From NCBI GenBank assembly GCA_964450115.1, contig CAYVCD010000001.1, positions 8,410-72,409 of the forward strand: 64,000 nucleotides of DNA, written 5' to 3'. This DNA comes from an uncultured Planctomycetia bacterium (GTDB lineage: Bacteria; Omnitrophota; Gorgyraeia; 2-01-FULL-45-10). The notes under the pieces are model-generated. The model made no database searches, had not been told where the DNA came from, and saw only the letters and a program-made list of their open reading frames with translations. Of this stretch, positions 971 to 32,043 are shown in pieces; the stretch's first letter is position 1; each line of letters begins with the position of its first letter. Position numbers and translations under genes: made by a program.

Positions 971-1039
971 TGTCATACCCGCGAAAGCGGGTATCCATAC
1001 ATCAGCATTGTTTGGATTCCCGCTTGCGCGGGAATGACA
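971..1039. repeat. REP-like palindromic doublet (two inverted hairpins ATACCCGC-GAAA-GCGGGTAT and ATTCCCGC-TTGC-GCGGGAAT-gaca)
   Basis: Two 8-bp-stem hairpins in inverted orientation in the gap before greA. The same hairpin recurs at 2714 and 31961–32043. Translating through it gives the recurrent artefact peptide SRLRGND / PRKRES in the ORF track. Confidence 0.55.
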
Positions 1040-1065
1040 GTAATAATGAAAATGGAGGACTTTTG

Positions 1066-1545
1066 ATGAGCTTAGGAAATGTTTATCTGTCTCATGACGG
1101 TTACGAAAAATTAAGAAAAGAGCTTGAGCAATTAAAGACCACAAAACGCAGAGAGATATCAAAAGCTATCGGAGAGGCGCGCGCTCACGGGGACTTAAGC
1201 GAGAACGCCGAATATACATATGCCAAAGAGGCTCAGGGCATGAATGAGAAGAAGATATCAGAACTGGAAGAGAAGCTCTCGAGAGCGAAAATTATAGACG
1301 AGAGCGCGATGTCCAAGGATGAGATCCTGATAGGCGCGAAAGTGAAGCTTAAAGATATGGACTCCTCCGAAGAGCTGGAGTATTCTCTAGTCGCTGAGGA
1401 AGAGGCCGACTATTCCGCAGGCAAGATCTCCGTCACTTCGCCGGTCGGCGAGGCTCTTCTGGGTCACAAAGTGAGCGATACGGTCAAGATAAAGATACCT
1501 GCCGGCACATTAACGTATAAGGTGCTTAAAATAACTAGAGAATGA
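1066..1545 (+). CDS. greA: transcription elongation factor GreA
   Basis: 159 aa. N-terminal coiled-coil (…LRKELEQLKTTKRREISKAIGEARAHGDLSENAEY…) and C-terminal FKBP-like domain. GGAGGA RBS 7 nt upstream of ATG 1066. The upstream part of the longer ORF (from 970) is the REP element. Confidence 0.85.
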   Translation: MSLGNVYLSHDGYEKLRKELEQLKTTKRREISKAIGEARAHGDLSENAEYTYAKEAQGMNEKKISELEEKLSRAKIIDESAMSKDEILIGAKVKLKDMDSSEELEYSLVAEEEADYSAGKISVTSPVGEALLGHKVSDTVKIKIPAGTLTYKVLKITRE

Positions 1546-2693
1546 GCCGTCCCCTCTGTAAACATTTCGGAGTCTGCGGAGGATGTGATTCGCAGGACCT
1601 GCCTTACGAGAAACAATTAGAAGATAAAGAAGCCCGCCTGAGAGATATATTTTCCCAGTTCAATATCAAAGAGACAACGCGAATCATCCCTTCCCCGGAG
1701 ATCTACCACTACAGGAATAAGATGGAGTATGCTGTAGGCACGTGGGATGCCGTCAAAGTCGTCGGCTTAAGGGAGAAGAAGAGATTTTACCATGTGGTGG
1801 GCCTTGACGAGTGCAGGATATTCAGTAAAGACGTCTCTGATATATTTGGTATCTTTTCTAAATGGATCGCAGATAACAATATAGAACCGTATCATAACTC
1901 AAAAGGCACCGGACTTTTGAGGTACCTGGCGCTCAGGCATTCAAAACATTACGACGATATCATGGCTATAGTGGTCGCAAGATCGGACAAAATAGATAGA
2001 TCCTGCCTGGTAAGAGAATTGCGCAAATTCAAAAAGATAAGATCCATCTACTTATGCGTAAATGACGGGGTGTCCGATGTCTCGGTGGCGGGAGATCTAA
2101 AGCTTATAGATGGAGATGAGCGCATAAAAGAGAGGATCAACGGCATTGATTATTTTATAGGCCCTGAGTCCTTCTTCCAGACCAACTCCTACTGCTCGGG
2201 CTCTCTCTACGCGGCTATTAAAGAAGAGGCGAAAGGCATTGGAGGCAAGGCGCTCGATCTATGCTGCGGGCTGGGCGGCATAACGCTGCAGGTGGCGGAT
2301 ATATTCGCGTCATTGACCGGCGTGGATATATCGGCACGCAATATTGAAGACGCTCTCCTTAACGCAAGATCGAACAATATCGATAATGTGGATTTTATAT
2401 GCCAGGATGCAGAAAAATATATCCAGAATATCCATTCCTCAGGCGCCATCAAACAATTTTCCGCCATCATTCTTGATCCGCCGCGCGCCGGCCTTGGCAA
2501 GAAGACCAGAGTAGCCGTGCGCGACAGCCAGGTGAAGAATATCATATATGTGTCATGCAACCCAAAGAACCTGGCAGAAGACCTGAAGGTTCTTACAGAG
2601 GCTTACGACATAGAGAAGATGATCCCGGTCGACATGTTCCCTCATACGAAACATGCAGAGGTTATTGCTATTCTTAAATCGAATAAGGTATAA
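1542..2693 (+). CDS. class I SAM-dependent RNA (uracil-5)-methyltransferase, RumA/RlmD/TrmA family (no TRAM domain)
   Basis: N-terminal Fe-S Cys cluster CKHFGVCGGC. Motifs FFQTN, DLCCGLGG (SAM site), DPPRAGL and YVSCNP. ATGA overlap with greA. Confidence 0.8.
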   Translation: MSRPLCKHFGVCGGCDSQDLPYEKQLEDKEARLRDIFSQFNIKETTRIIPSPEIYHYRNKMEYAVGTWDAVKVVGLREKKRFYHVVGLDECRIFSKDVSDIFGIFSKWIADNNIEPYHNSKGTGLLRYLALRHSKHYDDIMAIVVARSDKIDRSCLVRELRKFKKIRSIYLCVNDGVSDVSVAGDLKLIDGDERIKERINGIDYFIGPESFFQTNSYCSGSLYAAIKEEAKGIGGKALDLCCGLGGITLQVADIFASLTGVDISARNIEDALLNARSNNIDNVDFICQDAEKYIQNIHSSGAIKQFSAIILDPPRAGLGKKTRVAVRDSQVKNIIYVSCNPKNLAEDLKVLTEAYDIEKMIPVDMFPHTKHAEVIAILKSNKV

Positions 2694-2713
2694 TTACATT
2701 GATATCTACTATT

Positions 2714-12772: not shown

Positions 12773-13380
12773 CGCCTGAAGAGAGGCTTTTGAAGATAAT
12801 CGAGAATCCGAACACCCCGAAGCGCCAGGAGTCTTTGGCCGCCAAAGTGAGATCGTTCGATCCCGGATCTATAAAGGAATGGTTCTCCGGCATTCGCATG
12901 GATAAGGACCTTCTTAAAAAGATAAACCTAAAGGCGATCAATAAGATAATAGCCGTAATATGCGCCCTCATTACCTTAATATGGATATTCGATTTTGGCA
13001 GGGGTGGCATAGCGCTGGCAAAGCGTTTTAAGAAGATCTCCTCCGGCGAATCTCTCGTTTCGTCGGATGAAGGTAAGTGGCCTAAAATAGACGTTACTAT
13101 AACAGATGCCACAATACAGGCAAGAAAACGGAATATATTTACATTTCTGCCTACAAAAGAAGAGGCAGCTTCTGCGGTAAGCGTGGGGCCGACATTGGGC
13201 AATTTTAAACTTGTCGGTATACTGTGGAGCGATAACCCGCAGGCGATGATAGAAAATTCGCAAGAGCAGAGAACATACTTCGTTTCAAACGGAGATAAGA
13301 TAGGCGAGCTGACTGTAAAAAAGATCCTAAGGGACAAGGTAATGCTTGGTAAAGATGATCAGGAGTGGGAGTTAAGATGA
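12754..13380 (+). CDS. single-pass membrane protein with C-terminal GspB/GspC/PilP-like HR domain
   Basis: One TM (IIAVICALITLIWIF). The C-terminus (FKLVGILWSDNPQAMIENSQEQRTYFVSNGDKIGELTVKKILRDKVML) matches the secretin-interacting HR/PilP pattern. Overlaps both neighbouring genes. Confidence 0.45.
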   Translation: MAKDDMTPEERLLKIIENPNTPKRQESLAAKVRSFDPGSIKEWFSGIRMDKDLLKKINLKAINKIIAVICALITLIWIFDFGRGGIALAKRFKKISSGESLVSSDEGKWPKIDVTITDATIQARKRNIFTFLPTKEEAASAVSVGPTLGNFKLVGILWSDNPQAMIENSQEQRTYFVSNGDKIGELTVKKILRDKVMLGKDDQEWELR

Positions 13381-17092: not shown

Positions 17093-17120
17093 TTGACTAT
17101 TTTTAAAGGCGTGATATACT
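17093..17120 (+). promoter_or_regulatory. putative sigma70 promoter (TTGACT –16– TATACT)
   Basis: Hexamers at 17093–17098 and 17115–17120. Would start a transcript near 17128. Confidence 0.4.
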
Positions 17121-17314: not shown

Positions 17315-17373
17315 CGGAATTTTTAAAAGTGCCACGCTGAATTATAGTTTTTGGTAAAAAAAGGAGAAATAAA

Positions 17374-18372
17374 ATGTCTAGAGTGCCACGCATATACATA
17401 GAAAATGCGGTATGTTACATCACCTCCAGAGGTGACCATGAAGGAGCTATATTTAAGGAGGATGGTGACTACAAGGCTTATATGGAGTTATTGAAAAAGA
17501 CAAAAGATCAGTTTAAATTTAAGCTCTTTGCGTTTTGTCTGCTTCCGAATCATGCGCATCTGCTCATTGAGCCTGATGAAGAGAGCACAATATCGCAGAC
17601 GATGCATGGGTTAAGCTCAAATTACACGAAGTATTTTAATGGCAAATATAAGAGTAGCGGACATCTTTTTCAGGAAAGATACAAGATGGCTCTCGTAGAA
17701 AAAGATCCCAATATCGCTAATATGACCGCATATATTAACCTGAATCCAAAAGCCGTGGGAGTCACCTCAGAACCAAAGAGTTATCAGTATTCAAGTTATC
17801 CGTCTTACCTATATTATGGCGGGAGTAAGGGAAGTTTAATTGGCATTCCGGTAATATCGATCGAGAAAGAAGTGCGGGAGGTGTCGACGCACCTTAACGG
17901 AAGAAGATACGAAGATTATGTTAATAGTATATCATCGGAAGTCCTGCAGAATATCGGTAAGGAATTATCCAAAAAACCTATCATAGGATCAGATGAATTC
18001 GTTACAAGAGTAAAGTCAAAGATAGAGAGCGAAAAGCTAAAAGCTGAAACAGAAAAAGCTGGGGCCGGCGCGGTGGCCAGGAACAGTAAGAGATTTATCA
18101 TTGTCTCCGGAATCGTTATCGCTGTATTGGGACTATTGACTTTTTACCTATATTCAAGAACCATTTCTTTTAAGAGCACTCTTAAGAACAGGGAAGTAGA
18201 GCTCAGGCTGGGAGCGGTAAAGGCCAGGGGAGAGATAAAGAAAGATTTGAATGAAAGGTACCATGCTGACATGGTCTCTTATGAAGCGATGACAAAGAGA
18301 CTTGAGATAGAGAAGAAGAGGGCGGTGGAGTTGGAAAATAAATTGAAAGCTGAAGGCGCCCCAAAGATCTGA
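17374..18372 (+). CDS. RAYT/IS200-like Y1 (HUH) transposase domain fused to a C-terminal membrane-anchored coiled-coil region
   Basis: N-terminal ~140 aa match COG1943/RAYT: YHxxxRG (CYITSRGDHEGAIF), HUH motif LPNHAHLLIEP, catalytic Tyr context AYINLNPKAVGV. C-terminal TM (FIIVSGIVIAVLGLLTFYLY) plus a coiled-coil. GGAG RBS. Confidence 0.6.
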   Translation: MSRVPRIYIENAVCYITSRGDHEGAIFKEDGDYKAYMELLKKTKDQFKFKLFAFCLLPNHAHLLIEPDEESTISQTMHGLSSNYTKYFNGKYKSSGHLFQERYKMALVEKDPNIANMTAYINLNPKAVGVTSEPKSYQYSSYPSYLYYGGSKGSLIGIPVISIEKEVREVSTHLNGRRYEDYVNSISSEVLQNIGKELSKKPIIGSDEFVTRVKSKIESEKLKAETEKAGAGAVARNSKRFIIVSGIVIAVLGLLTFYLYSRTISFKSTLKNREVELRLGAVKARGEIKKDLNERYHADMVSYEAMTKRLEIEKKRAVELENKLKAEGAPKI

Positions 18373-18382: not shown

Positions 18383-21300
18383 ATGATCTATATGAAAAGC
18401 TTAAAAGGTAATGCTATAGTATCGGGGTGTTTTAAACTCGCGTTTATCGCATTCCTTATGACAGGCCTATGGACCAGCACTACCGCGAGCAACCCGGATT
18501 ACTACGAGTGGACGCAGAACAACTGGAACAGCAGCGCCAATCCGGCAGCGCAGGGTTCCCACCCCGGTAGCCAGACCGGCTGGACCAATTATTTTAGTAA
18601 AGACACGCCCCTTGGCATAGATACTTCCAGCGGCAAGGTGAAGCTAGCAACACTACCGTATACAATTACGAATACGACGCCAACCGATTTTAATTCCACT
18701 GAATTTCAGAATATAGAAAAAGTGAGCGATGGAAATGGAGCGTTGAGGCTCTTACCTACTATTAATGACCCCTTTGCAAATAATGAACTTCGTAAATGGA
18801 GAGCGCTTCCGAGCACTCCTTATTTTAATGCCAATACCAGATTTACGCGTATGGGTGATTATATATACTCCATATTCGTCTCCGGAGACGGCAAGCAGTT
18901 TGGCCGTATAAAAGTAAGCGACATATCGGATCCTGCCATTCTTCCAAAATGGCAATTTTTGACTTCTCTGCCCGTTCCATTAGGCGCCGGCGCGGCGATA
19001 ACCAACGATGGCCAGTATATATTCGTCCTGCGCGGCGGTGGTTCCAACGCGGCTTATTTTTATCTGCCTCCGGAAGGAACTAACCCCGGAACTAATCCAT
19101 TCACCACGGCTGACAATCCAATAACTTTACCTGTGGCAGGAAGCGAGGATCCCGTTCTTGCATGGCCTAAATTCTCTAGTTTGTCTGAAGGTGCCCAGAA
19201 AGGATCGTCGGTGATTCATGTTGGTACGATAGCCGATCGTTTCGCAAAAGTGGCGGATAGAGGACAGTTGTATGCTGTGTCAGGTGGCAATAGAACGGGT
19301 TTTTTTTACTACGACACATTTAACAAGGAATGGAGAAGGTTCACTAATCCGTCAAGAGCGGCTGTGAATGTTGGAGCCACGCTTATCCATAGAGGCGGCG
19401 ATTCTGTTTATCTGGTATTTGGAGACGGCTATAATGGCCGTATAGATAGATTTAGCAGAAGTTCTGGGACATGGTCTAATGCCTCCAGTAATACGTTTTT
19501 TCCCAAAGATCCGAATTTAATTTCTTTTCCGACTCTATGGGAAGGCTCTGTCTGCTCGTATCCCGGCTCAGGAGATTACGTATATGCGGCATTCTGTTAT
19601 TATACCTATATGCAGCCCTATAGATCGGGCGCCAATCACACGCTCCGGGGATTTTTTAGGTTCGGGCCGCTATCCGACCCAAATCCTACCTGGCAAAGAC
19701 TTGATGATGCGCCTGCCTGGATAGAGACTACTGCTTCGATCATCTATGACCCCGGTGCAGGAACAGGCGCTGAAGGAAATAAGTTGCATCTCTTTTCCGG
19801 TAGGAATTATACCCGGCCCTGGGTATACAAAACAGATAATCCGGACCCCTCTCAAAACCATTGGGAAACAATGTCTATGCCCTTAACTTATACAACCAAC
19901 AGCTCGATGGTCTACGTAAAAGCGGATACTTATACGGGAAATAAGGATTATATGTATATGGTCGTCAGAAACACATGGTTTCTCCGCTACGATGTTGCAG
20001 CGAATAAGTGGGATCTACTGGCATATCTACCAGAGACTGCCGGAGATCATCCCGGTAATCGCCTTACCTACTTGAATGGATATATTTATTACCTGGCGGG
20101 AAATAACAGTGCTGATCCGCTAGATGGATATAAGAGCGGATTTTACAGATATAGGGTATCTCAGACGTTGAATGGAAGCGACTCATGGGATCCAAAAACC
20201 GTCCTTCCGCAATTCCCAAGAGTGGATTTAAATACGAGCGATGCCATATTTAATAATGTAAATGCAGGCTCGGGCATTATAGGCATATCGCAGGGCGGTA
20301 GGAATTTTATATACGGCATCAGAAGTTCATCAAGCAGCTATTTTTATGCGATGGAAATTGGTGCCGACAATGCTCCCGTAGGAGGCTGGATTACCATGCC
20401 CAGCACAAGGGATAAATATAACAATTTAACCACTTTTAATACAACAAATTTGGTATACCCGGGTTATCCGGAAGACGGCGGTCAGCATACCTACATATAT
20501 GCCATCACGTACTTCAATACCGTAAGTGTCAGAAGCGGTTATTGTATATATAAGTATGGACCTATCGAACACGACACTGATACGGATCCCTCTACCGCCG
20601 CGCAATGGACCGAACTTTCGGCTACCTATCCTCACGATGTTACCACCGGACATAACATGTCCATCGCGTATCCTGGCACAGGCCAATATCTATACACAAC
20701 TACCGGTACATCAGATACATCGCTTGGCAGGTATAACATGCCTACAGGTGAATGGACCAAGCTCGATACTGTAGTACCCGTTGCCTATGAATATTACAGC
20801 CATGCTGTCGGAGGCAATAACAGCGTATACTTAACGACATATTATTCACAAAATAGTTTTTACCGTTATGATGTGACTTCGGGAAGGTGGGATGATCTGC
20901 CGATGGATCAGGGCGGTTTCTATTTCGAGGCCGGCAATGCGGTCAAGGACTCAAATAACAATGTATATTTTGTGGGGGGTAGGTCAGGTGATAATATATC
21001 CTCACATCTCTGGATATACAGTACTTCGCTAAAGAAGTGGGTTGGGCTTATGCGGGCGCCATTTCATTTGTCCAGAGGGACTAAAGCCGAATATTTGAGT
21101 GGTAAGGACAACTCTATAAATTCAATCTATGTAACAGAGGGTAGGCAGTCGAATCGGTTCTGCAAGTATAATATCACAAATGACGCTTGGAGTTTTTGCA
21201 AGCCTATTAAAACGGCTGTTACTACCGGCAGCCAGATAACTACCGATGGTATAAGCAAGATATACTTTGTGGCCGGAGGTGATGCTATCGGTAAGACAGT

Positions 21301-24300
21301 ATGGATCTACAATGCGCTTCAGGATGATGGCCAGGCGGATCCCTGGGGTGAGTTTCGCGAAAGCCTTAAGTTGCCATTTGCCTCTACCGTCACCGCGGAC
21401 TTGATGGAATATGCTCAAGGTAATCTATATTTAGTGGCGCAAAACAGTAACACCTTCTATAAGTATCAAGTTGACGGTCAGTTGTCAGGGTGGGACTCAA
21501 CAAGCCTTAGGCCTGTAGGCGATTCCGGCTCAGGAAGCACCATAGTGCCGAGCGGCGGAATATGCCTTTATTATCCCGGCGCGGGATCAAAGCTATACTG
21601 TATACCAAGAGATGGATTTAGCGATTTTCTATCCTATGATATAGGTACCGACCTATGGAGCCCTTTAAAAGAGATGCCCTGGATACCATCTGCCGGAGTG
21701 TCGGCTATAATTGACGCCGGCGAAAGTTGGGTCTATACGTATAACTCAGCCTGGCGCGACATTCTGATACGGTATGATAAGACCGATAATATTTGGGACG
21801 CCATACCTTCCATGCCCGCTGCGCTAAAAGGGAACTCTGCGTTATGTGCATACAAAGGATATGTATATATTCTTAACGGAGGCGCCGGAGACGGTTCCTT
21901 TTCCCGCTATAATACAGAAGGAGAGGTATGGGAACAGCTTCAGTCACCCTATTCTGCAAACTCATCGTTCACATTTCCGAACCAGGGTATATTTGCGCTT
22001 CCGGTAGAAAATCCTTATGATGGAAAAGCGTATATATATTTTACAGAGGGGTATGGCCTCAGCCGGTTTTTCAGATATAGTATAAACGACAACACATGGC
22101 AGACAGTGACAGCTCCGCCCGGAGGAACGACTTGGAAATACGGCAACAGTATGACTCAGGTGGGAAATTACCTCTATATTGTTGATGGCAATGGTACGAA
22201 TTTTTGGAAGTATCGTCTTGATGACTTCTACGACATGTCGTTTTCTGTTCCTCTTCCCGAGTCCGTAGGCAGGGGCGCCAGCGTCGCCTATAGCAGCTAC
22301 GATGGCCGCGTCTATTTCTTCTCCGGCGCCAGATTCTCTTATTTTTATAAATGGCTGCCGGGCGCAACGGGATGGACCCCATTAGCGAGCTGCCCCGTGT
22401 CGGTCAATGACAGCCAATCTAACCTGCTTTATCCCGGATTTGGAAAGTACCTCTATTACATACAAGGCTCATCATATGGGTATAGCGACCCTTCATCCGT
22501 TTTCCTTAGGTATAGTATGGACCCGACGACACCGGCCTCGGACAGATGGACCGAGCTTACTCCCTCTTCTTTCGGCATATATGTGCCGGGCACATTGCTT
22601 TATGCGGGAGGTCAAAATTTTTATGTTGCAAAAGGATATGATAGCGTTTTCTTGAGCAAATATTCCGCATTCTGCTTCGGTGATTATGTTTCTAAGCCGA
22701 TAGAAGTGGGAAGGCATTGCAAATGGGGCACGATAAGCTGGGATAGCATAGGGAGCGGATCGGTGGGAGTGAGCGCAAGAACAGGTAGCAAACTGCTTAA
22801 CGCTAATCTTACCGATGCTCTTGACTGGGGGCAAGTCACGAGCGTTGGAAACGGACAGAATCTATCCGATCCTTCAAGGCCGTTATCAAGCATCAAAGAC
22901 ACAGATAAATATATACAATATCGGGTAGATTTTTCCACGGATGAAACTGGCGTTGGGGTGATAATGCCTCGACTGGATGAGATAAGGATAAATTGGGAGA
23001 AATATGCCTCAGAAAAGACCCTCGTCTCGTCGCCATACAACACAGGGTGGGATAAAAACAGATTAAGAAAATTGATGTGGAATAATGCGGGCGCTCTTAT
23101 GAATCCTACAGGCAGCGAAATACGTTTTCAACTGCGTACATCAGCAAATGGCAGTGCGTGGAGCGACTGGCTGGGACCGCTCGGTACAAGGATGTCAACC
23201 TACGCCTTAAGCGATGATAGCTTATACGTGCGCTCCGGAGACATAAAGCAGCTTAATGCATCCGATAGCTGCGCCTCTCTTTATTATGAATTGGAGAATT
23301 TCAACTTCTGGCAGGATGTCGCCATAAGCAATAATGGACCCAGCAGCATAGCGGCGGGTCAGGTAGCTCTGATAGACATAAACAGTTCCGCGACGCATTT
23401 TTGGAATAATGTAGCTTCATCTGGCCAGGATATTAGATTTTTTGACGGAACGAACAAGATGTCATATTTTCTGGCAAAGTTTGATAATCAAAGTGATATC
23501 GCGCAGATAGCCGTAAAACTAAATAGTGCCATAGCGCCAGGCGCTACCATGCATGTATATATGTTTTACGGAAACGCTAGGGCGTTCTCTGAAAGTAACG
23601 ATATAATCAGAAATCTTACTGCTATTAAAACCGATCCGAGCATAAGTAATATAGGATGGTGGGATTGCGACCAGAGGATGGTCGCCTCATCGGCCTATTA
23701 CACTCCTGACTCATCAGGCATGGGCACTCGACTATATATGAGAAAGAACATTGTGGTCAAGTCTGGTGAGGGTGTGTCCGGCGGTAATGCATTTTATATG
23801 GATGGCGCAAGCGGTTACATGACAACATATCGGGTATCGAGTTCTTTCAGCTATAAAGGGCTAGACAGGACATTCTCTCTATGGATAAAGCCGGAAGTGG
23901 ATCCCTCCGGATCGTGCTTACTATCCAGCTATCCCATCAATGGATACAATTACAGGATACAGTTAAATTCGGCCAGGGAGATGACTATCTATATTTCAAA
24001 TTCAACACCCGGCACGGCATTTAAAGACTTTTCAGTAAAAGCCAATGCAAAAATTCCGGCAGATAGTAGTTGGCATAATATAGTATGGGTCTTGAAAGGC
24101 AAAAATGGAGCAATAACAGGAGCTGTCAATAACGGTGCCGGCAAGGTTCGATATACCACTTCTTCCCCCCACAGCTTAACGCCTTTTACGCCTATTTCTG
24201 TATTCGCAATGGGCGAGCCAACTTATAATACGCTGCAAACAATAACAAGCGTTCCGGATGCAACGCATTTTGATACCGCTATTGACTATGTTGCCAATGC

Positions 24301-27300
24301 AGATGTAACCGGCACTTATTGCGCCGGGGGAACGACATCTCTCTATTTAGACGGCACCCTTGTCGGCGGGCCATTTACGCACTATATTACAGATTGGAGT
24401 TATGTCGACACTTCTTTCCCCAGTGGCACTAACTATATATTCGGTAGCTATACGGACTATGATAATTCTGACAGAAGCTGGCTCTACAAGGGGTATGTCG
24501 ATAATCTATCATTTTATAATTATGCCTTTGACGAAACGTTGGCAAAATGTATGTATGCCGGAGCAAATCGAAATCTGGCCACCGTATTTTCCGGCGGTTA
24601 TACAGACAATACGGGCGCGAATCTTAAGAATACCGGAAAATTTTATACTACCAATCCCACCATAGAGCCTATTTACGGCGTCTTCTATAATTACGGTGAT
24701 GGCGATACGCTGGCGTCGTTTGTGCAGGATCCCAGCGTAAATGCACTCGGCACGAGCATAAAGTACCAAGTTTCTCCGGACGGATATAACTGGTATTGGT
24801 GGGATAGTACAGCACCTGCCGGCGGAGCCTGGGTTATTGCTTCGGGAGGGACATCACAGGCAAACGTCTATACCGAGATAAATGCTAATCTCTCGACGTT
24901 CAGGAACATAAATCTTCCCACCGGAGTTTCTGCCGCATCGGGCGATTTTTACTGGCGCGCTTATCTTATGTCCACAGACGGCGGCACGAGCAATCCTCAG
25001 CTTAGGAATGTAACGATCAACGTTACGAATGGCGCCAGCTCCTACTATACCGATCCGGCGGGCTTAAAAAATATAAATATTGAGAACGAGAATTGCGTTG
25101 CGGACAGGTGGATACAGTACAAGGCTATTCTCTATTCGGATGGGGAAAATACCCCCACACTCAACGACGTTGTATTGAGGTACATCGAGCCGTATATTAC
25201 AATAGGATCGCCCTCTGGCGGTGAAACATGGGTAGCCGCCACTACAGAAAATATAACATGGACGTCCCATGGCCTCGAGGCTACAAAAGCGGCCCCTGCC
25301 ACTCACGGAGTTCAGCTTAAATATTCTATCGATAACGGGGTCAGCTGGGTAAGCCCCGCCATCACCAATGATGCTCCCAATAGTAATACTCTCCCATGGA
25401 ATATACCATTTGATCCGTCTCCGCAGGCTCGCGTCAGCATCGCTTCCAGCGATTACCCTGTAATAACCGCCACGTCTCCGGGCTCTTTCAGAATATTGGG
25501 TATTATACTTAATCTACCCAATGGCGGGGAGATATGGGAGAGAGGGTCTCTGCATTCTATTGAATACAGAACGTCAGGTTATGGGAGCCCAAGCACCAAA
25601 TTAAAATTACAACTATCAAATGACGGCGGGCTCAGCTATAACACTACCCTGGCGCAGGAACAGACCGACGCGCCGCCATGGCAGATCCCATGGAGAATCA
25701 ATCAGTCCGCATCAGACAACATTAAGCTTAGAATATACGATGCAAATCCTGTTTTCTGCACACCATCGATAAGGATAGTTGATGAAAGTAACAGCTTATT
25801 CAGCATAGTAGAACCTCCCAAAATAATAATAGACAGAGTGATGAAGGTTCCGGAGGAGGAAGTTATCGACGGAAAGATGATAGCAGGAAAAAGATATAGA
25901 ATAGAATGGCATACCACATCACAACACTTCGCCGAAAATTTTATACTCGAGTACTCCAAGGACAATTTTGCGACACCCGGCATTTCTATTGGCACGGCCG
26001 CATCCGGCGTGTCGGGCGGAGTATTTCCTGCTCCCGCATCGCAACTTCAGTGCAATTATGTATGGCTGGTAATTCCCTATGACATAGCGGATATCAAATT
26101 AAAGATAAGAGAAGATCCTGCTACTGTGCCGTCTCAGAGAGACACACCGGCCCCGCAAGAAGCGACAATAGCTTTGAGTATTATAGAGCCGTATTTTACT
26201 ATTGTAAGGCCCAATGCAGGCGAAATATTTGTCAGTGGTGACAAAGAAAAAATTACTTGGACCACGACTGGTAGTGTCACAGGGCCGTTTAAACTTGAAT
26301 ATTGCACAGATTATAACGAAGTCGATCCGGGCGCATCCAGCTGGATGACTATTGAGACAAATACTGCATATCCATACTTGCCCGGAAGCATACCGCCCGA
26401 TGTGCGTGAATATATATGGCCGGTACCTATTGTCACGCAGGACAAAGAAAATTGTCGCATCAGGATCACTGATATCAGTACTAATACGATAACTGATATG
26501 TCTGATGTCAGCTTTAAGATTATTTCGCATGAAAAGATAGCTATAACGACTCCTGATGGAGGCGAAGAATGGGTTATGGGAGTGCCTTACAATATAACAT
26601 GGGGTGCAAACGGCCAGAGCGTTCTTAGTAAACAGTCACCTGTCTATGTTTATCTGTATTATTCCACAGATGATGGGAAGACATACAATGAAATACCGGA
26701 GATCGGTCCACAGGTTGCATGGAAAGAGTCGTGCGAATGGACACCGGAATTACCCGTTTCTACTACGAAAGCTAAAATAAAAATAGAGGCTCTTGATTTG
26801 AATGCTCATCCGTATCTTGTGGATGCGTCTGAGGGAGTCTTCAGTATAAAAGATCCCAGCATAAGCCGCATATGGTTGGAGCATGACGGAACAGAGGTAG
26901 CGTCGGCTTATGCTACCGGTAATTACGATATAAGATGGGAGAGCTATGGCGCTGTAAGCAATAATATTAAGATTGAGTATAGGCTCAATGGCGCCGCATG
27001 GCAAACATTAACAGCATCTACGACAACACAGGAAGGCAGCGCCAGGCTAAAGCCGTGGGAGATCCCTAAGTCCGACGGAGCGCTGCTGGAATTTAAAATG
27101 ACAGATAATAACAGGGCGTCTGTTGTAAAAATATCGGACGTATTCAGCATAACAAAACCTGTTATTAACATAACTGCGCCTGCCGCTGATTTCCCATGGG
27201 TAGTAGGATTATCCGGTACGGTGAGCTGGACCACTCAAGGTGGGGATTTCCAGGCCATCAAAAGATTAAAAGTGCAGTGCATTGCCGATGCCACCCATAC

Positions 27301-30300
27301 TTACGATATAGGCGAGATCACTACGGGATTAGAAGCTAACGCAGGCAGCTTTGATTGGACGCTGCCGGCAAATGCGCCATTGTCGACCGCCGTGAATAAG
27401 GCAACTATAAAGATATTCGATCCGGATCCAAGCGGAAGCGGCGTTACCGCTACGCTGCAGTTCAATATAAAGGAGCCTTCGCTGATAGTAGATGTGCCTA
27501 CTCAAGCCGATTCATGGAGGATCGGAAGCCAGAATAAGACTATCTCCTGGCATCGCCTCGGCATGGTCACCTATCCTATACATATATACTGCAGGACGCA
27601 GGACGGCGCGGAACACCTCCTGGCGGACATAGGCGATACCAACGTATCTGCATCATGGAACTGGACGAGCGTGGATTTCCCGGGAATCATTCCCGGAACC
27701 TCTTACATTGTAATACGGGATTCGACCGTGCCGGTGCCGATCGTTACAAAATTTGATACGGAAAGAAACGGACTATTTACGATAGAAGCGCCGAGGATAA
27801 AGATACTGGGTCCCGGCGATCCTAAAAAAATAGATAATAGCACCGATAATCCTAATTACGGGCAACAGTGGACTACCACGGATAGCAGGGGCGTTGAATG
27901 GGAATGCGACGGCATGATGGACGGACCGCTATTTAAAGTCGAATGGTCCAGAAGCGTCGGGGAGACGGTGGCGGCAAGCGGTACCATAGCAGAAGGCATT
28001 AATTCCGAGTCGCGTCTTGCGCTTTGGAGTGATATCCCTCAGGAGGCGGTCGGTCCGAATGTGCGGTTAAAGATCACGAACACAGGCTCCGCCTATGGAA
28101 CGTTCGCTCAGTCCGCGCCGTTTACGGTATTTCCAGTGCCGGAATTTTTAACCCTTACAGCGCTTGATCCTGTTACGGACGCGTCTACTAATACGGTACG
28201 AATAGGAAATACCTATAAAGTGAAATGGACGCGTAATGTTGCCGCATTCAGCAATGCGCTGGAGCTATCATTTGCCCTTACCGGAAGCCCGGCAATGTCG
28301 GATTGGCGGCCCATAACAGAAACTCCTGTGGCAAGGGACCTGGAATATTATACGTGGACCATTCCTCATACGGATATGATGCCTTATGCGGGCGCAAAAC
28401 TCAGAATATATGATACCGCATCATGGAAAAGCTCTTCCGCGGCGCACACAGAAAAAATAGTATCAGTGGATATAGGTCGTCCGGTCTTTAATAATATCAA
28501 ACTGCTAAAGCCGGGTAGCGCGCAGGCCGTAAACTGCATTGCCCTGGCGGAGGTTGCGGATATCAGGTGGGGTTGGGATGGATATATCAGCGAAGACAAC
28601 AACTCCGTTTCGATAAAGCTGATAGAAGACCTTAATGACAACGGAAAGATAGATATTAACGAATACAGTGCGCAGATAGGGACCTCTTCCAACACAGGCA
28701 GTTATAACGGTTGGATAGTGCCGGTGAATGCGCCTGCAACAAATAAAGCCAGGATAGTGCTGCAGGACATCTTCGCAAATTACGGACTAGGGAATGAGGT
28801 TATTGATGCGTCCGAGAAGTTTACTATTATTAACCAGCCCGAGATAACGCTTGTCACTCCCAATGGCGGGCAGGACTATATTATAGGAACAGACAAGATA
28901 AGCTTTGAGTGGACTTCCAGGGGAATATCCGTAGATGAGGTCAAGATAGAGCTGTCTTCGGATGATTTTAACCCTGCTTCGACTCCATACTTGGTAACAG
29001 ATGCCGCTCATCCCGATGGCAAATTCCCCAATACGGGAGAATTGCGCGATTGGTTAATACAGCAGGATTCCGCCGCGGGCAGTCATGTAAAGGCCCGCAT
29101 AAGCATGGTCGGCAGAGAGTCTGAGATATTCGATGTTTCAAATAACTCTTTCCGTATAAGAAGCGGATTTATAGTAAAGACTCCGGCTTTGAATGAGAAA
29201 TGGGCAACTAATGAAATTAAAGATATTACATGGGACACAAAAGGCGCGATACAAAAAGTGAGCTTGTTCTATAGTATCGATAATGGGATGAATTTTAACC
29301 CTATTCCCGGGGCCAAGAACATAGATAATACCGGATCATTCTCATGGAGAGTGCCTAACGAGAGAACGGATATCAACGTTACAAAGGCCCAGATAATGGT
29401 CAAAGATGCCGGCGATACGGAAGGCATAATACAGAATAAGTCCGAACCTTTCGATATAATCTGGTACAAGATCAAGTTCTATATAATCGATAAGGACACC
29501 TACAGCCCCATAGGAAATCTGATAGTGAGGAGCAAGGATGATACCGCGCTGTACTATCCGGGATGGAACGTTCCCATTGATTTGGTGAGCGCGCAGGAAA
29601 ATGACTATCTTTCGTCTCCCATAAGCTATGAATTCCCCGCCGGTACATTTGTCGTTACCTGGTCTACGAGGCCGGATGCTTCCGGGAAATCGCCGTATTT
29701 CGACAGAGGCGTAGAGGTCAAATCGAATGTTGAAAATTCGAGAAAGGGCATCCTTGTTGAACTGGAAAGCGTCATCTCTGCTCAGATAGAATGGCACGTT
29801 ATTCTTACAAACTCCTATGTTGCCCAAAGCGATACGTTAAGCGCGACTGCCTGGATAGAGCGCCGGGGAAAATTGCAGGAGCCTATACCTATGGATACCT
29901 CAGAACCGCCGGACGGCATACCGGATACGCTTGATAAGAGTAATTTTAAGTCCTGCGAACTGAAGGTATACGACTATGATACCGATACCAACACGCCTCT
30001 CAAAGTCTTTACCGACGTTCTTCCGGACGATAAGGGATTGTATAAATTTGTCTGGAACCCTACGGGCCTCCAGGAGGGTAAGACATATTTTGTCAGGGCT
30101 ACTATAACATATGGCGTCAGCAGCACTCCTTACACATCGGGAGGCACTTTCGACATAAGCGTGACAAAGGCGCAGTCGCAGATGATAACAGAGCATGCCG
30201 AACAGAAGACGCTTTTGGAGACTATAACCGGGCAGGCTGCCGTTATACAGACGGCCGTTACGACTACCATCCCGCAAAAGATAGACGAAGCAACAAGCAT

Positions 30301-31135
30301 AATAGGATCAAAAATAGATACATCCACAAACGCGATAAAAACAGAGACGAGCGCGATAAAAGCTGAGACAGCCAAAATTTTAACGGCGACTGAAAGCACT
30401 ATTCCGACGCAGATCAGGGAGACGGTGGAGCCATCTCTAAGATCAGAGATCCTTAACAGGGAGAGCACGATGCGGCTCGGCAGTAAGCTTATGGTACGGT
30501 ATCGTACTTACCCGGGCCTCGAACCGGTTATTACTGTTTACGATCCGCGTAATAAGCTAAAGATCTCCCAATCCCCGATGAAAGAGGTTGCCGGTTCGTC
30601 GGGTATATATGAGCATGAGGTATTTCTTGCAAACGGGTGGACCGTGGGCGATTATACGATCGTTTGTTCAGAGTCCAGTAAGGGGACGATGGATGCATTG
30701 ATCATATCCGCGATAAGGACCGATCTTGAGGATATATCGGGGCAGGTATCCAGCATACTTGGCACGACCACGAGCCTAGCCAACCTTAAAGATGTCGCCG
30801 ATACGTTGAACAGCCAGTTCAGCATCATCGAATCGGCGCTTGGCAAGATAAGCACCGACCTCGTGAATAAGGTCAAAGAGGTTGCCTCAAGCGCCACCGA
30901 TATAGAATCCGTATATGGACAGCTCGTCAAGATAGGCAAGGAGCTGAAGACTCTCGGAGCCAGTCAGGATGTGAACCTGAGTAAGCTGCTAGAGGTCTCT
31001 AAAGAGAAGAGCCAGGATATGAAGTACCTGAAGAATAAGACGCAGCAGCTGAAGGCCGCTATGGAATTGAATAACAAGATGGTCGAGAACATGGCTCACA
31101 AGCCTGTAACCCAGACATGGTTCGAATATAAATAA
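18383..31135 (+). CDS. giant (4250 aa) secreted/surface protein: signal peptide, more than 20 Kelch-like beta-propeller blades, LamG/ConA-like domain, at least 10 tandem Ig-like ~100-aa repeats, Thr/Ser-rich coiled-coil C-terminal region
   Basis: Uninterrupted 12.75-kb ORF. N-terminal hydrophobic signal. Recurrent blade motifs (YIFVLRGG, YVYILNGG, IYFVAGGD, LYIVDGN…). LamG-like segment (FSLWIKPEVDPSGSCLL…WHNIVWVLKG). Repeats with an ITWT..G signature. C-terminal AIKTETSAIKAETAKIL heptads. Confidence 0.8.
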   Translation: MIYMKSLKGNAIVSGCFKLAFIAFLMTGLWTSTTASNPDYYEWTQNNWNSSANPAAQGSHPGSQTGWTNYFSKDTPLGIDTSSGKVKLATLPYTITNTTPTDFNSTEFQNIEKVSDGNGALRLLPTINDPFANNELRKWRALPSTPYFNANTRFTRMGDYIYSIFVSGDGKQFGRIKVSDISDPAILPKWQFLTSLPVPLGAGAAITNDGQYIFVLRGGGSNAAYFYLPPEGTNPGTNPFTTADNPITLPVAGSEDPVLAWPKFSSLSEGAQKGSSVIHVGTIADRFAKVADRGQLYAVSGGNRTGFFYYDTFNKEWRRFTNPSRAAVNVGATLIHRGGDSVYLVFGDGYNGRIDRFSRSSGTWSNASSNTFFPKDPNLISFPTLWEGSVCSYPGSGDYVYAAFCYYTYMQPYRSGANHTLRGFFRFGPLSDPNPTWQRLDDAPAWIETTASIIYDPGAGTGAEGNKLHLFSGRNYTRPWVYKTDNPDPSQNHWETMSMPLTYTTNSSMVYVKADTYTGNKDYMYMVVRNTWFLRYDVAANKWDLLAYLPETAGDHPGNRLTYLNGYIYYLAGNNSADPLDGYKSGFYRYRVSQTLNGSDSWDPKTVLPQFPRVDLNTSDAIFNNVNAGSGIIGISQGGRNFIYGIRSSSSSYFYAMEIGADNAPVGGWITMPSTRDKYNNLTTFNTTNLVYPGYPEDGGQHTYIYAITYFNTVSVRSGYCIYKYGPIEHDTDTDPSTAAQWTELSATYPHDVTTGHNMSIAYPGTGQYLYTTTGTSDTSLGRYNMPTGEWTKLDTVVPVAYEYYSHAVGGNNSVYLTTYYSQNSFYRYDVTSGRWDDLPMDQGGFYFEAGNAVKDSNNNVYFVGGRSGDNISSHLWIYSTSLKKWVGLMRAPFHLSRGTKAEYLSGKDNSINSIYVTEGRQSNRFCKYNITNDAWSFCKPIKTAVTTGSQITTDGISKIYFVAGGDAIGKTVWIYNALQDDGQADPWGEFRESLKLPFASTVTADLMEYAQGNLYLVAQNSNTFYKYQVDGQLSGWDSTSLRPVGDSGSGSTIVPSGGICLYYPGAGSKLYCIPRDGFSDFLSYDIGTDLWSPLKEMPWIPSAGVSAIIDAGESWVYTYNSAWRDILIRYDKTDNIWDAIPSMPAALKGNSALCAYKGYVYILNGGAGDGSFSRYNTEGEVWEQLQSPYSANSSFTFPNQGIFALPVENPYDGKAYIYFTEGYGLSRFFRYSINDNTWQTVTAPPGGTTWKYGNSMTQVGNYLYIVDGNGTNFWKYRLDDFYDMSFSVPLPESVGRGASVAYSSYDGRVYFFSGARFSYFYKWLPGATGWTPLASCPVSVNDSQSNLLYPGFGKYLYYIQGSSYGYSDPSSVFLRYSMDPTTPASDRWTELTPSSFGIYVPGTLLYAGGQNFYVAKGYDSVFLSKYSAFCFGDYVSKPIEVGRHCKWGTISWDSIGSGSVGVSARTGSKLLNANLTDALDWGQVTSVGNGQNLSDPSRPLSSIKDTDKYIQYRVDFSTDETGVGVIMPRLDEIRINWEKYASEKTLVSSPYNTGWDKNRLRKLMWNNAGALMNPTGSEIRFQLRTSANGSAWSDWLGPLGTRMSTYALSDDSLYVRSGDIKQLNASDSCASLYYELENFNFWQDVAISNNGPSSIAAGQVALIDINSSATHFWNNVASSGQDIRFFDGTNKMSYFLAKFDNQSDIAQIAVKLNSAIAPGATMHVYMFYGNARAFSESNDIIRNLTAIKTDPSISNIGWWDCDQRMVASSAYYTPDSSGMGTRLYMRKNIVVKSGEGVSGGNAFYMDGASGYMTTYRVSSSFSYKGLDRTFSLWIKPEVDPSGSCLLSSYPINGYNYRIQLNSAREMTIYISNSTPGTAFKDFSVKANAKIPADSSWHNIVWVLKGKNGAITGAVNNGAGKVRYTTSSPHSLTPFTPISVFAMGEPTYNTLQTITSVPDATHFDTAIDYVANADVTGTYCAGGTTSLYLDGTLVGGPFTHYITDWSYVDTSFPSGTNYIFGSYTDYDNSDRSWLYKGYVDNLSFYNYAFDETLAKCMYAGANRNLATVFSGGYTDNTGANLKNTGKFYTTNPTIEPIYGVFYNYGDGDTLASFVQDPSVNALGTSIKYQVSPDGYNWYWWDSTAPAGGAWVIASGGTSQANVYTEINANLSTFRNINLPTGVSAASGDFYWRAYLMSTDGGTSNPQLRNVTINVTNGASSYYTDPAGLKNINIENENCVADRWIQYKAILYSDGENTPTLNDVVLRYIEPYITIGSPSGGETWVAATTENITWTSHGLEATKAAPATHGVQLKYSIDNGVSWVSPAITNDAPNSNTLPWNIPFDPSPQARVSIASSDYPVITATSPGSFRILGIILNLPNGGEIWERGSLHSIEYRTSGYGSPSTKLKLQLSNDGGLSYNTTLAQEQTDAPPWQIPWRINQSASDNIKLRIYDANPVFCTPSIRIVDESNSLFSIVEPPKIIIDRVMKVPEEEVIDGKMIAGKRYRIEWHTTSQHFAENFILEYSKDNFATPGISIGTAASGVSGGVFPAPASQLQCNYVWLVIPYDIADIKLKIREDPATVPSQRDTPAPQEATIALSIIEPYFTIVRPNAGEIFVSGDKEKITWTTTGSVTGPFKLEYCTDYNEVDPGASSWMTIETNTAYPYLPGSIPPDVREYIWPVPIVTQDKENCRIRITDISTNTITDMSDVSFKIISHEKIAITTPDGGEEWVMGVPYNITWGANGQSVLSKQSPVYVYLYYSTDDGKTYNEIPEIGPQVAWKESCEWTPELPVSTTKAKIKIEALDLNAHPYLVDASEGVFSIKDPSISRIWLEHDGTEVASAYATGNYDIRWESYGAVSNNIKIEYRLNGAAWQTLTASTTTQEGSARLKPWEIPKSDGALLEFKMTDNNRASVVKISDVFSITKPVINITAPAADFPWVVGLSGTVSWTTQGGDFQAIKRLKVQCIADATHTYDIGEITTGLEANAGSFDWTLPANAPLSTAVNKATIKIFDPDPSGSGVTATLQFNIKEPSLIVDVPTQADSWRIGSQNKTISWHRLGMVTYPIHIYCRTQDGAEHLLADIGDTNVSASWNWTSVDFPGIIPGTSYIVIRDSTVPVPIVTKFDTERNGLFTIEAPRIKILGPGDPKKIDNSTDNPNYGQQWTTTDSRGVEWECDGMMDGPLFKVEWSRSVGETVAASGTIAEGINSESRLALWSDIPQEAVGPNVRLKITNTGSAYGTFAQSAPFTVFPVPEFLTLTALDPVTDASTNTVRIGNTYKVKWTRNVAAFSNALELSFALTGSPAMSDWRPITETPVARDLEYYTWTIPHTDMMPYAGAKLRIYDTASWKSSSAAHTEKIVSVDIGRPVFNNIKLLKPGSAQAVNCIALAEVADIRWGWDGYISEDNNSVSIKLIEDLNDNGKIDINEYSAQIGTSSNTGSYNGWIVPVNAPATNKARIVLQDIFANYGLGNEVIDASEKFTIINQPEITLVTPNGGQDYIIGTDKISFEWTSRGISVDEVKIELSSDDFNPASTPYLVTDAAHPDGKFPNTGELRDWLIQQDSAAGSHVKARISMVGRESEIFDVSNNSFRIRSGFIVKTPALNEKWATNEIKDITWDTKGAIQKVSLFYSIDNGMNFNPIPGAKNIDNTGSFSWRVPNERTDINVTKAQIMVKDAGDTEGIIQNKSEPFDIIWYKIKFYIIDKDTYSPIGNLIVRSKDDTALYYPGWNVPIDLVSAQENDYLSSPISYEFPAGTFVVTWSTRPDASGKSPYFDRGVEVKSNVENSRKGILVELESVISAQIEWHVILTNSYVAQSDTLSATAWIERRGKLQEPIPMDTSEPPDGIPDTLDKSNFKSCELKVYDYDTDTNTPLKVFTDVLPDDKGLYKFVWNPTGLQEGKTYFVRATITYGVSSTPYTSGGTFDISVTKAQSQMITEHAEQKTLLETITGQAAVIQTAVTTTIPQKIDEATSIIGSKIDTSTNAIKTETSAIKAETAKILTATESTIPTQIRETVEPSLRSEILNRESTMRLGSKLMVRYRTYPGLEPVITVYDPRNKLKISQSPMKEVAGSSGIYEHEVFLANGWTVGDYTIVCSESSKGTMDALIISAIRTDLEDISGQVSSILGTTTSLANLKDVADTLNSQFSIIESALGKISTDLVNKVKEVASSATDIESVYGQLVKIGKELKTLGASQDVNLSKLLEVSKEKSQDMKYLKNKTQQLKAAMELNNKMVENMAHKPVTQTWFEYK

Positions 31136-31154
31136 TTTTTGGAAAGGGAGTGAT

Positions 31155-31949
31155 ATGAGGAAGATATTCTGTCTCGCTATTTTTATGATAGCATTATCGA
31201 TCTTTGTTTCCAATTCCTATGCCGGAATAGTCCTGAAAGTCCTTGCCGCAAATCCATCTAAAACGGAAAAACAATCGGTCATTGTGAAAGCGTACTTGCC
31301 TAAAGAGGTGAAGCCCGAAGATGTTGTGGATAAGGGTGACCTCGAGATAGCGTATGACAATCAGCAGGGTTCTTACTATGTATATGGAGAATATAGCCTC
31401 GACCCGGGCCAGAGCATAGACCGAGATGTGGAGATGCACGATATATGGCAGGTGCCCGCCACAGAGATGGAGTCGATAAGGGCCGAAGCCGAAAAGACCT
31501 CAAAGTTACTGGAGAATACCGATTTCCGGGATAGGATGAGTTTCCTGAAGCAGAGTATAGACGCCAAATTGAAAGAGATAGAGGGTAGGCAGAGTATTCC
31601 GGCGGTGAACCCTGAGCGCCATATATCTAACTACCGCGATAACGTGAAGCTGTTAGAATCGGTGAAATCCGATCTTGTAGTATTAAGGAGCCTGCTGGCC
31701 CAGGCAAAAGGATTGCCGGCGACCGCGGTATGGCGCCTCATATTGATAATAATCAGTTTTCTCGGGGTTATCGGCGCGGGCTCATATATCATATGGCAGA
31801 GGCAGATGAAGCTGGTGGAGATACCGGCGGCAAAAGCCTTAAAGAAGGAAGAAGACGATAAGCAGGATGCTAGCAAAAAGGTCGAGTCCAAAGATGATGA
31901 TCTCGAAGCGGCGGAAAACATAGAGAAGCTGCTGCGAGGGGATAAATAG
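31155..31949 (+). CDS. signal-peptide protein with a coiled-coil, a C-terminal TM anchor and an acidic tail
   Basis: SP MRKIFCLAIFMIALSIFVSNSYA. TM AVWRLILIIISFLGVIGAGSYIIW. GGGAG RBS. Function unknown. Confidence 0.5.
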   Translation: MRKIFCLAIFMIALSIFVSNSYAGIVLKVLAANPSKTEKQSVIVKAYLPKEVKPEDVVDKGDLEIAYDNQQGSYYVYGEYSLDPGQSIDRDVEMHDIWQVPATEMESIRAEAEKTSKLLENTDFRDRMSFLKQSIDAKLKEIEGRQSIPAVNPERHISNYRDNVKLLESVKSDLVVLRSLLAQAKGLPATAVWRLILIIISFLGVIGAGSYIIWQRQMKLVEIPAAKALKKEEDDKQDASKKVESKDDDLEAAENIEKLLRGDK

Positions 31950-31960
31950 TGAGACGATCT

Positions 31961-32043
31961 CTCATTCCCGAATGTTTTTATCGGGAATCCAAACAAGATA
32001 AAATTCTTGTTATAGATTCCCGCTTTCGCGGGAATGACATATT
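31961..32043. repeat. REP-like palindromic doublet (ATTCCCGA-atgttttta-TCGGGAAT and ATTCCCGC-TTTC-GCGGGAAT-gaca, inverted)
   Basis: Same hairpin family as 971–1039 and 2714–2741. Lies in the gap and overlaps the GTG-31949 N-terminal extension of the next ORF. Confidence 0.55.

Follow-up and report, generated by a model that had tools for sequence, protein, structure and literature searches.

Introduction

RAYTs (REP-associated tyrosine transposases, where REP stands for repetitive extragenic palindromic) are domesticated Y1 transposases. Their association with REPs is limited to RAYT groups 2 and 3; groups 1, 4 and 5 are domesticated single-copy Y1 genes that are housekeeping-like and have no abundant flanking repeats (Bertels et al. 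2017, PMC5581495). Another class of hairpin repeats has been described together with the Ssn nucleases (PMC11893778, 2025). Two hairpin motifs were defined in that study, the Neisseria Transformation Sequence (NTS), CGTCATTCCCGCGMAVGCGGGAATCYRG, which includes the older dRS3 repeat, and the ‘Ssn-related motif’ (SRM), a degenerate motif for equivalent hairpins across many phyla. The NTS/SRM hairpins flank single-domain GIY-YIG proteins of ~94 residues, which cut the hairpins as single-stranded DNA. Here we analysed 64,000 nucleotides of an Omnitrophota genome (contig CAYVCD010000001.1; hereafter the window), in which REP-like hairpins occur together with a gene at position 17374 whose product carries a RAYT-like Y1 domain (hereafter gene 17374). 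An earlier note on this DNA had implied a REP-RAYT partnership between the two. We consider it likely that the hairpins are NTS/SRM repeats, that gene 17374 encodes a domesticated Y1-derived membrane protein, and that the two are independent of each other.

Hairpin repeats in the window

We confirmed the recurrent hairpin that had been noticed earlier. The perfect core hairpin, ATTCCCGC-N4-GCGGGAAT, is present in three copies (1016-1035, 2717-2736 and 32016-32035), and a variant with two mismatches is found at 975-994, against a chance expectation from shuffled sequences of 0.01 matches. With its flanks, the unit reads TGTCATTCCCGCG-NAA-GCGGGAATCCA, with flanking ends TGTCAT..ATCCA. The total of five copies across three intergenic gaps of the 64 kb is far above local chance. 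As had also been reported, the arrangement resembles that of REPs or REPINs, with inverted doublets (a forward copy, a spacer of 13-20 nt and an inverted copy) in two of the three gaps. Of the positions reported at that time, 32026-32043 was displaced by 10 nt from the true copy.

The first doublet (971-1039) lies between a P-II-like gene and greA. Its left half is a forward copy (971-998, + strand) with the variant sequence ATACCCGC-GAAA-GCGGGTAT, which matches the degenerate SRM exactly and differs from the core at two positions. In the right half, an inverted copy (1012-1039, - strand), positions 1013-1038 correspond to the 26-nt NTS core GTCATTCCCGCGMAVGCGGGAATCYR with 0 mismatches. The single forward copy (2713-2740, + strand) is situated between a tRNA U5-methyltransferase-like gene and an aspartyl protease gene; it is an exact SRM, with one mismatch to the NTS core in 2714-2739. 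The second doublet (31961-32039) separates an open reading frame (ORF) of 264 residues from a peptidase gene. It consists of a degenerate forward copy (31961-31991, + strand), recognized by sequence reading, regular expression and folding as ATTCCCGA-N9-TCGGGAAT at 31964-31989, and an inverted copy (32012-32039, - strand) that is an exact SRM and contains the NTS core at 32013-32038 with 0 mismatches. Folding with DNA parameters indicated stable single-strand hairpins, with z values of -5.3 for the singlet and -9.0 and -6.7 for the doublets, with the entire doublet 971-1039 forming a single hairpin of 69 nt (-27.8 kcal/mol, z = -9). No further copies were present in ~15 kb of extra flank of the same genome.

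Relationship of the hairpins to NTS and SRM

A full-text search for the hairpin core sequence led us to the study on the Ssn nucleases (PMC11893778). In the window, the SRM expression gave three exact matches (0.26 in shuffles), and the 26-nt NTS core gave two exact matches and one with a single mismatch (0 in shuffles); the full 28-nt NTS including the end bases had no exact match in the window. The core GTCATTCCCGCG-MAV-GCGGGAATCYR is thus exact in two window copies and the SRM consensus is fitted by three. As in Neisseria, the repeats are intergenic and sometimes occur as inverted pairs. Judged by their sequence, the hairpins are ~28-nt repeats of the NTS/SRM class, GTCATTCCCGCG-NAA-GCGGGAATC, and add another example to a class already described.

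At least 120 metagenome stretches, sampled from soil, sludge, marine habitats and sediment, contain the exact 26-mer GTCATTCCCGCGNAAGCGGGAATCCA. We examined 80 loci with the identical hairpin, comprising 470 kb and 109 core hairpins. In four of them, an ORF of ~96 residues with a GIY-YIG domain (Pfam GIY-YIG, 1e-15) was located right beside the hairpins, and in one of these (L056; loci fetched for comparison are designated by L numbers) it was flanked by copies of the identical hairpin. The GIY-YIG family found near the identical hairpin comprises 7989 members or more at E<=1e-10, with sequence identities of 70-88% between Proteobacteria, Planctomycetota and Chloroflexota. For such distant hosts, the identity among these ~95-residue proteins (L056 1043-1453; L071, L072 and L117; P0265-P0384) is unusually high, which suggests horizontal spread or a strong co-constraint with the hairpin. 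The identical 26-mer has now been found in an Omnitrophota genome as well as in many metagenomes, and the repeat probably belongs with Ssn-type nucleases.

Several results speak against this assignment. The nuclease gene was present in just four of the 80 hairpin loci, which is weak support, and which is the outcome expected if there is one gene per genome. No Omnitrophota name appeared among the top GIY-YIG matches. In addition, and unlike the described NTS/SRM systems, no ssnA-like GIY-YIG gene of the cd10448 type was found in the 64-kb window and the ~15 kb of extra flank, so that the partner is putative in this genome and cleavage of the window hairpins is a prediction. In the window, a search by tblastn with GIY-YIG sequences and by a motif regular expression served as a lead only, and a jackhmmer search seeded from real GIY-YIG ORFs agreed. 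The class assignment thus rests on sequence identity and on the association elsewhere. A further difference is the host, as Omnitrophota is absent from the main text of PMC11893778.

We also considered whether the hairpins are plain mRNA structures (3′ ends, terminators or stabilizers) or protein-binding sites, with neither a dedicated nuclease nor a dedicated transposase. All window genes lie on the + strand, and every copy is found in a gap between co-directional genes, at likely operon boundaries; the forward copies also have loops of the GNRA type (GAAA, GCAA and GTAA). On the other hand, none of the stems in the window is directly followed by a T-run, and this explanation does not account for 26 nt of identity to a cross-phylum repeat class or for the recurrent adjacency of GIY-YIG genes. 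It could coexist with a link to Ssn nucleases; as the sole explanation we regard it as unlikely.

Gene 17374 and its family

Gene 17374 (17374-18372, + strand) encodes a protein of 332 residues consisting of a RAYT-like Y1 domain, a conserved middle domain, a transmembrane (TM) helix and a coiled coil, as judged from Pfam, NCBIfam, homologues, AlphaFold, Foldseek and profile searches. Pfam Y1_Tnp matches residues 26-122 (1.2e-14), and both the HAH motif (His60-Ala-His62) and Tyr120, in YINLNP, are present. In the AlphaFold model (pLDDT 85), a β-α Y1 domain and a helical middle domain are followed by a single helix spanning residues 207-327, with a hydrophobic stretch at about 241-262. The best match of the model in the Protein Data Bank (PDB) by Foldseek was the REP-bound RAYT of E. 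coli, TnpA-REP (4er8_A; E 1.6e-8, TM-score 0.71 on the target), and the next matches were the TnpA proteins of IS200, ISDra2 and IS608. The term RAYT-like is therefore right at the level of the fold. A PDB sequence search with the family profile gave no match, and the score towards the NCBIfam model REP_Tyr_transpos (NF047646) was 62.4 bits, below the cut-off of 80.

A protein search with the 17374 sequence revealed 370 full-length relatives of ~320-340 residues; the named matches among the 120 relatives listed were all from Omnitrophota. An exhaustive profile search gave 3237 cluster representatives at E<=1e-30; across the family, almost all of the named members come from Omnitrophota. In a pattern-based scan of species representatives, we found 46 loci, one per genome, mostly in metagenome-assembled genomes of Omnitrophota and including one complete chromosome; the family is probably single-copy. 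The TM helix and the coiled coil are conserved across the family alignment. In public records, relatives are labelled ‘transposase’ or ‘RayT’.

The catalytic residues were compared among the 120 homologues. HxH is found in 96 and the Tyr in 112, with both HUH and Tyr intact in 93. In the remaining 27, HUH or Tyr has been lost through many different substitutions (QIN, SVT, YVN, FVH and others), and S74, Y84, G96, L98, R102, G205 and F209 are invariant in all 120. The variety of the losses, set against these invariant residues, indicates that catalysis is less constrained than the rest of the protein.

Only 10 nt separate gene 17374 from a giant gene (18383-31135, + strand), which encodes a protein of 4250 residues with Kelch β-propellers and DUF2341 (Pfam) and whose synteny with the Y1 gene is conserved. 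The two genes are paired in every orthologous locus with called genes that we checked, at protein identities of 36-75%, and the orthologues without HUH in L001, L003 and L005 keep the giant-gene partner. When the comparison was widened, nearly all loci that were long enough had a giant ORF at a distance of 0-3 kb downstream. These ORFs are longer than 1700 to 3300 residues, usually running off the locus, and one to three small ORFs with signal peptides are sometimes found between the Y1 gene and the giant ORF. Taken together, the giant Kelch/DUF2341 genes span a range from >1,700 to 4,500 residues.

Gene 17374 is a domesticated gene for a membrane protein derived from a Y1 transposase, and not a gene of a mobile element. 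Three proposals of the earlier note are thereby borne out: HUH/Y1 motifs of the RAYT type, the fusion of the catalytic domain to a TM helix and a coiled coil, and the possibility of domestication. To our knowledge, a RAYT-like domain heading a single-pass membrane protein with dispensable catalytic residues is new. The membrane anchor with its coiled coil, the control by a riboswitch (see below) and the fixed giant-gene partner appear to be undescribed for a Y1 protein; none of the three is described for RAYT groups 1, 4 and 5 (PMC5581495), which gene 17374 otherwise resembles as a domesticated and probably single-copy Y1 gene that lacks abundant flanking repeats. A recent preprint on Omnitrophota mentions the transposase flanks of giant genes solely as mobile DNA (10.64898/2026.06.07.730766, 2026). 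The finding that the ‘transposase’ beside giant genes is a conserved host gene bears on claims of giant-gene loci rich in mobile elements in this phylum.

The hairpins and gene 17374 as probably separate entities

A RAYT gene would be flanked by copies of the REP/REPIN of its genome. The earlier note had proposed to look for REP copies at the flanks of gene 17374. None was found; the flanks are occupied by a riboswitch leader and the giant gene, and the nearest copies, at 2717 and 31964, are ~14 kb away on each side. Among ~600 kb around the 17374 orthologues there was one hairpin copy (in L027), and conversely, a hidden Markov model (HMM) of the Y1 domain (E<=1) detected no Y1 ORF in the 80 loci with the identical hairpin. 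These results give no support to the partnership that had been implied.

We nevertheless weighed the model in which the protein is a RAYT that recognizes and mobilizes the ATTCCCGC hairpins, as in a REP/REPIN-RAYT system with an added membrane anchor. Much of the protein fits such a system, represented by TnpA-REP of E. coli (4er8) and the Pseudomonas REPINs. The best fold match is a REP-bound RAYT, HUH and Tyr are intact and YINLNP is RAYT-like, the gene is probably single-copy, as RAYTs are, and its orthologues have the same gene neighbours. The hairpin doublets likewise resemble REPINs in form. However, the model is in conflict with the distribution of the hairpins described above, in which no Y1 ORF was found near the hairpin whereas GIY-YIG genes adjoined it in four loci. 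The protein stays below the NCBIfam cut-off for RAYTs (62 against 80 bits) and, unlike RAYTs, has three additional parts, namely a middle domain, the TM helix and the coiled coil. Its gene lies in a riboswitch-led operon with a giant gene, and the catalytic residues are dispensable in the family, having been lost in about a fifth of the relatives. The restriction of REP association to two RAYT groups (PMC5581495) also argues against the model, which we judge to be very improbable. The ‘transposase’ or ‘RayT’ labels in public records and the Pfam Y1_Tnp match might suggest an active or recently active insertion sequence of the IS200/IS605 type that landed by chance upstream of the giant gene, but this is refuted by the synteny of orthologues at 35-75% identity, and one locus per genome, the conserved TM helix and coiled coil, the lack of repeated ends, and a 10-nt gap that leaves no room for a right end leave it with practically no probability. 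A REP-like repeat and a ‘RayT transposase’ in one window thus probably do not form a system, and a tempting mis-annotation has been separated into its parts. The architecture of the 17374 protein could show what roles domesticated Y1 transposases have when they are not moving REPs.

The leader of gene 17374

The gap upstream of gene 17374 is 308 nt long. It contains a predicted sigma-70-like promoter (17093-17120, + strand) consisting of TTGACT, a 16-nt spacer and TG-TATACT, which scored 10/12 in a consensus scan and whose box is conserved in L173, L174 and L001. Downstream lies an aptamer of the cyclic di-GMP-I (c-di-GMP-I, or GEMM-I) class (17138-17275, + strand), identified by Rfam, leader alignment, covariation and covariance model (CM), with a hairpin of 56 nt inserted into it at 17175-17230. 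It is followed by an intrinsic terminator (17286-17314, + strand) with a 7-bp stem (17286-17305) and a run of eight Ts, the predicted expression platform of the riboswitch. The hairpins at 17155-17170 and 17286-17305 had been noted to differ from the repeat. This is indeed the case, as they correspond to the GNRA-capped stem of the aptamer and the intrinsic terminator, respectively.

At the gathering threshold, Rfam found nothing on the window. At the E-value threshold, c-di-GMP-I-GGC was found at 17141-17214 with 31 bits (E 2.3e-5), the best clan member scoring 59. Ten orthologous leaders (L003 and nine further loci) passed the gathering threshold. An alignment of 12 leaders, that of the window and 11 orthologous ones, revealed the canonical core in the window, GGCAAAC-stem-GNRA-stem-GGGAC/GCAAAG-stem. 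RNAalifold detected compensatory changes at 13 of 18 pairs, in both stems, and GCAAAC as well as the GCAAA junction show no variation in any of the 12 leaders, that of the window included. With a CM built from this alignment, the aptamer was found in 33 of 39 sources, always on the strand of the gene; the model gives the window 71 bits, a score to be read with the window being part of the training set. A terminator with a stem and a T-run follows the aptamer in every aligned leader. The window leader thus resembles c-di-GMP-I (RF01051, clan CL00126; variants RF03167 and RF03168) in the GGCAAAC...GNRA...GGGACGCAAAG core, the second stem and the terminator platform, with covariation in both stems.

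The window copy differs from described members of the class in its insertion, which folds on itself. The insertion is located between GGGAC and GCAAAG, where the first stem meets the junction, and is the reason why the aptamer scores below the gathering threshold. It is absent from the closest relatives, L173-L175. We examined whether it is a copy of a repeat of the window, and found no second copy there. Insertions at other sites of the aptamer were seen in L032-L035 and L039.

The aptamer usually precedes the Y1 gene by 150-260 nt. In L018 (4790-4882), L021 (13544-13629) and L036 (11354-11440), the riboswitch instead follows the Y1 gene and directly precedes the next gene or genes and the giant ORF. 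What the riboswitch constantly accompanies is therefore the module, and not strictly the Y1 gene. In L001 (9884-10004), an orthologue without HUH (QIN in its place) also lacks the aptamer; what remains in front of the Y1 gene is the promoter, the GTGCCACGC motif and a short hairpin that resembles a terminator and has a T-run. A target consisting of a Y1-derived membrane protein and a giant protein was not found reported for c-di-GMP-I riboswitches, and our literature search gave no pairing of c-di-GMP riboswitches with Omnitrophota. A c-di-GMP-I riboswitch ahead of a giant Kelch/DUF2341 operon provides a regulatory handle in an uncultivated phylum.

We infer that c-di-GMP is the ligand in this lineage. 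Three aptamers (L003 9840-9918, L025 2494-2570 and L034 4491-4590) have A instead of G just before the conserved GCAAAC, at a position which we take to be that of G20 in the Vibrio Vc2 aptamer. A G-to-A change at that position shifts GEMM-I towards 3′3′-cGAMP. Among the leaders that passed the gathering threshold, the Rfam variant models were c-di-GMP-I-UAU for L003 and c-di-GMP-I-GGC for L008 and L029. Going by these sequences, different lineages may have different ligands.

Between the terminator and the ribosome-binding site, we found a conserved leader motif, AAGTGCCACGC (17327-17337, + strand; family consensus AAAGTGCCA(G/C)GCAC). In 537 kb, 32 of its 69 matches fall on the + strand within 400 nt upstream of a Y1 gene, and the window contains only two matches. 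The motif is also found in the leaders of L001-L037 and L173-L175, in one or two copies that are often exactly 32 nt apart. It is sometimes a perfect palindrome, AAAGTGCC-W-GGCACTTT (motif sequence AAAGTGCCAGGCACTTT), and the window carries a half-site. In L003 and L018 the motif abuts a TTGACA box, and in L018 and L021 it accompanies the leader of the riboswitch and not the Y1 gene. We considered and rejected a sigma-54 promoter, as the spacing from GG to GC is 2 nt short of the general sigma-54 consensus and a conserved TGGCAC is missing on the + strand. What looks like another copy, GAGTGCCACGC at 17381-17391, lies in codons 3-6 of the coding sequence and probably encodes the conserved R-V-P-R; other orthologues use different codons.

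Neighbouring genes

Two genes precede the leader. One (16778-17065, + strand) encodes a protein of 95 residues with a TM helix and a coiled coil, the other (16058-16768, + strand) a TM/coiled-coil/TPR protein of 236 residues (TPR by Pfam). The C-terminal module of the 17374 protein and the 95-residue protein are 35% identical over 85 residues (BLASTP, E 2e-11), in agreement with the earlier note that the coiled coil is common to both. A homologue search with the 95-residue protein detected only itself, and its paralogues were found instead with a local HMM of the C-terminal module. This HMM matches three adjacent kinds of proteins, namely the Y1 proteins, the upstream proteins of ~95 residues (E 2.5e-18 for that of the window) and the N-termini of the 236-residue TPR proteins (E 3e-8). 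Small genes equivalent to 16778 are present in L001, L007, L008, L173 and L174, and the whole trio of TPR protein, 95-residue protein and Y1 protein (16058-16768, 16778-17065 and 17374-18372) recurs in L001, L008, L173 and L174. The shared TM/coiled-coil module suggests that the members of the trio may form a hetero-oligomeric envelope complex.

Further upstream, a secretin of the PilQ/GspD/MshL-like type is encoded at 13365-15104 (+ strand; Pfam Secretin 2.4e-43, NCBIfam), with the same arrangement in L001 and L174. Downstream of the giant gene, the ORF of 264 residues (31155-31949, + strand) has no Pfam match and may be the last gene of the operon, going by its position only. L176 (537-3832), a stretch of the same genome ~10 kb upstream of where the window begins, encodes two proteins with the architectures response-regulator-GGDEF and response-regulator-GAF-GGDEF-HD-GYP. 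Genes for both the synthesis and the degradation of c-di-GMP are thus found near the riboswitch operon.

Possible functions of the Y1 protein

As the most likely mechanism, the following scheme can be proposed. c-di-GMP would control read-through into an operon with its own promoter, the c-di-GMP-I riboswitch, the intrinsic terminator, the Y1 gene and the giant Kelch/DUF2341 gene. The Y1 and middle domains of the protein would reside in the cytoplasm, connected by the single TM helix to a coiled coil of ~70 residues in the periplasm. The Y1 protein would no longer need DNA cleavage, and would serve as a membrane-tethered subunit that binds nucleic acids or acts as an adaptor. Its coiled coil would join envelope proteins that handle or regulate the giant protein, and, much like the membrane-bound regulators of the ToxR type, the Y1 protein may bind to the conserved AAAGTGCCAGGCAC motif in the leader.

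ToxR, TcpP and CadC are bitopic membrane-bound regulators. As a functional analogy, they combine a cytoplasmic nucleic-acid-binding domain, a single TM helix and a periplasmic domain, and have a small membrane partner next door, as the Y1 protein appears to. They differ in that there is no sequence or fold relationship, and DNA binding and regulation by the Y1 protein are predictions.

As for the specific mechanism of the Y1 protein, any proposal at present is tentative and rather more likely to be wrong than right. One possibility, to which we assign a low probability, is that a RAYT-derived Y1 domain was exapted as a cytoplasmic, sequence-specific nucleic-acid-binding head, which would link the giant-protein operon to an envelope machine by way of a coiled-coil bundle in the periplasm, formed with the two paralogous neighbours. 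The head would bind AAAGTGCCAGGCAC as DNA or RNA, and thereby regulate the operon or tether its transcript at the membrane, under the c-di-GMP riboswitch. If true, HUH/Y1 domains would gain a functional class that is new, and Omnitrophota would possess a system dedicated to the control of their giant surface proteins.

Some of our results do not favour the proposed explanation of gene 17374. HUH and Tyr are intact in the 17374 protein itself and in 78% of the homologues, so that catalysis could remain important. The score of the window aptamer is below the gathering threshold, and the insertion may have made it inactive. We examined a switching model with pairing between the GNRA-capped stem and the arms of the terminator; such complementarity is found in the window but is not shared by L003 and others, and we therefore make no ON/OFF call for the switch. 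The upstream secretin, ExeA-like and TPR genes are kept in a subset alone, consisting of the window, L001, L173 and L174. Finally, the topology, the interaction through the coiled coil and the binding to the leader motif are properties that we infer.

An alternative function, which we hold to be unlikely, is that of an active membrane-anchored HUH nuclease that processes single-stranded DNA, in the manner of a relaxase, for export or uptake through the neighbouring secretin or pilus-like machine. The intact HUH and Tyr in 93 of the 120 homologues would agree with this, as would the secretin, ExeA-like AAA and TPR genes beside the Y1 gene in the window, L001, L173 and L174. However, 22% of the homologues lack the motifs and still keep the synteny, the secretin neighbourhood is absent from L003, L005 and others in which the giant gene is retained, and no other DNA-transfer genes were seen.

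Two further features of these loci were observed. The 3′ tail of the secretin ORF contains a 24-nt inverted repeat (14977-15000 and 15019-15042; 96% complementary, 18-nt spacer), AAATGGGGACAGCGCCCCTTTTAG, of which no copy was found in the 181 loci fetched. In L020 (9960-10000), five tandem ATGACAA repeats are present just before the start codon of the 17374 orthologue.

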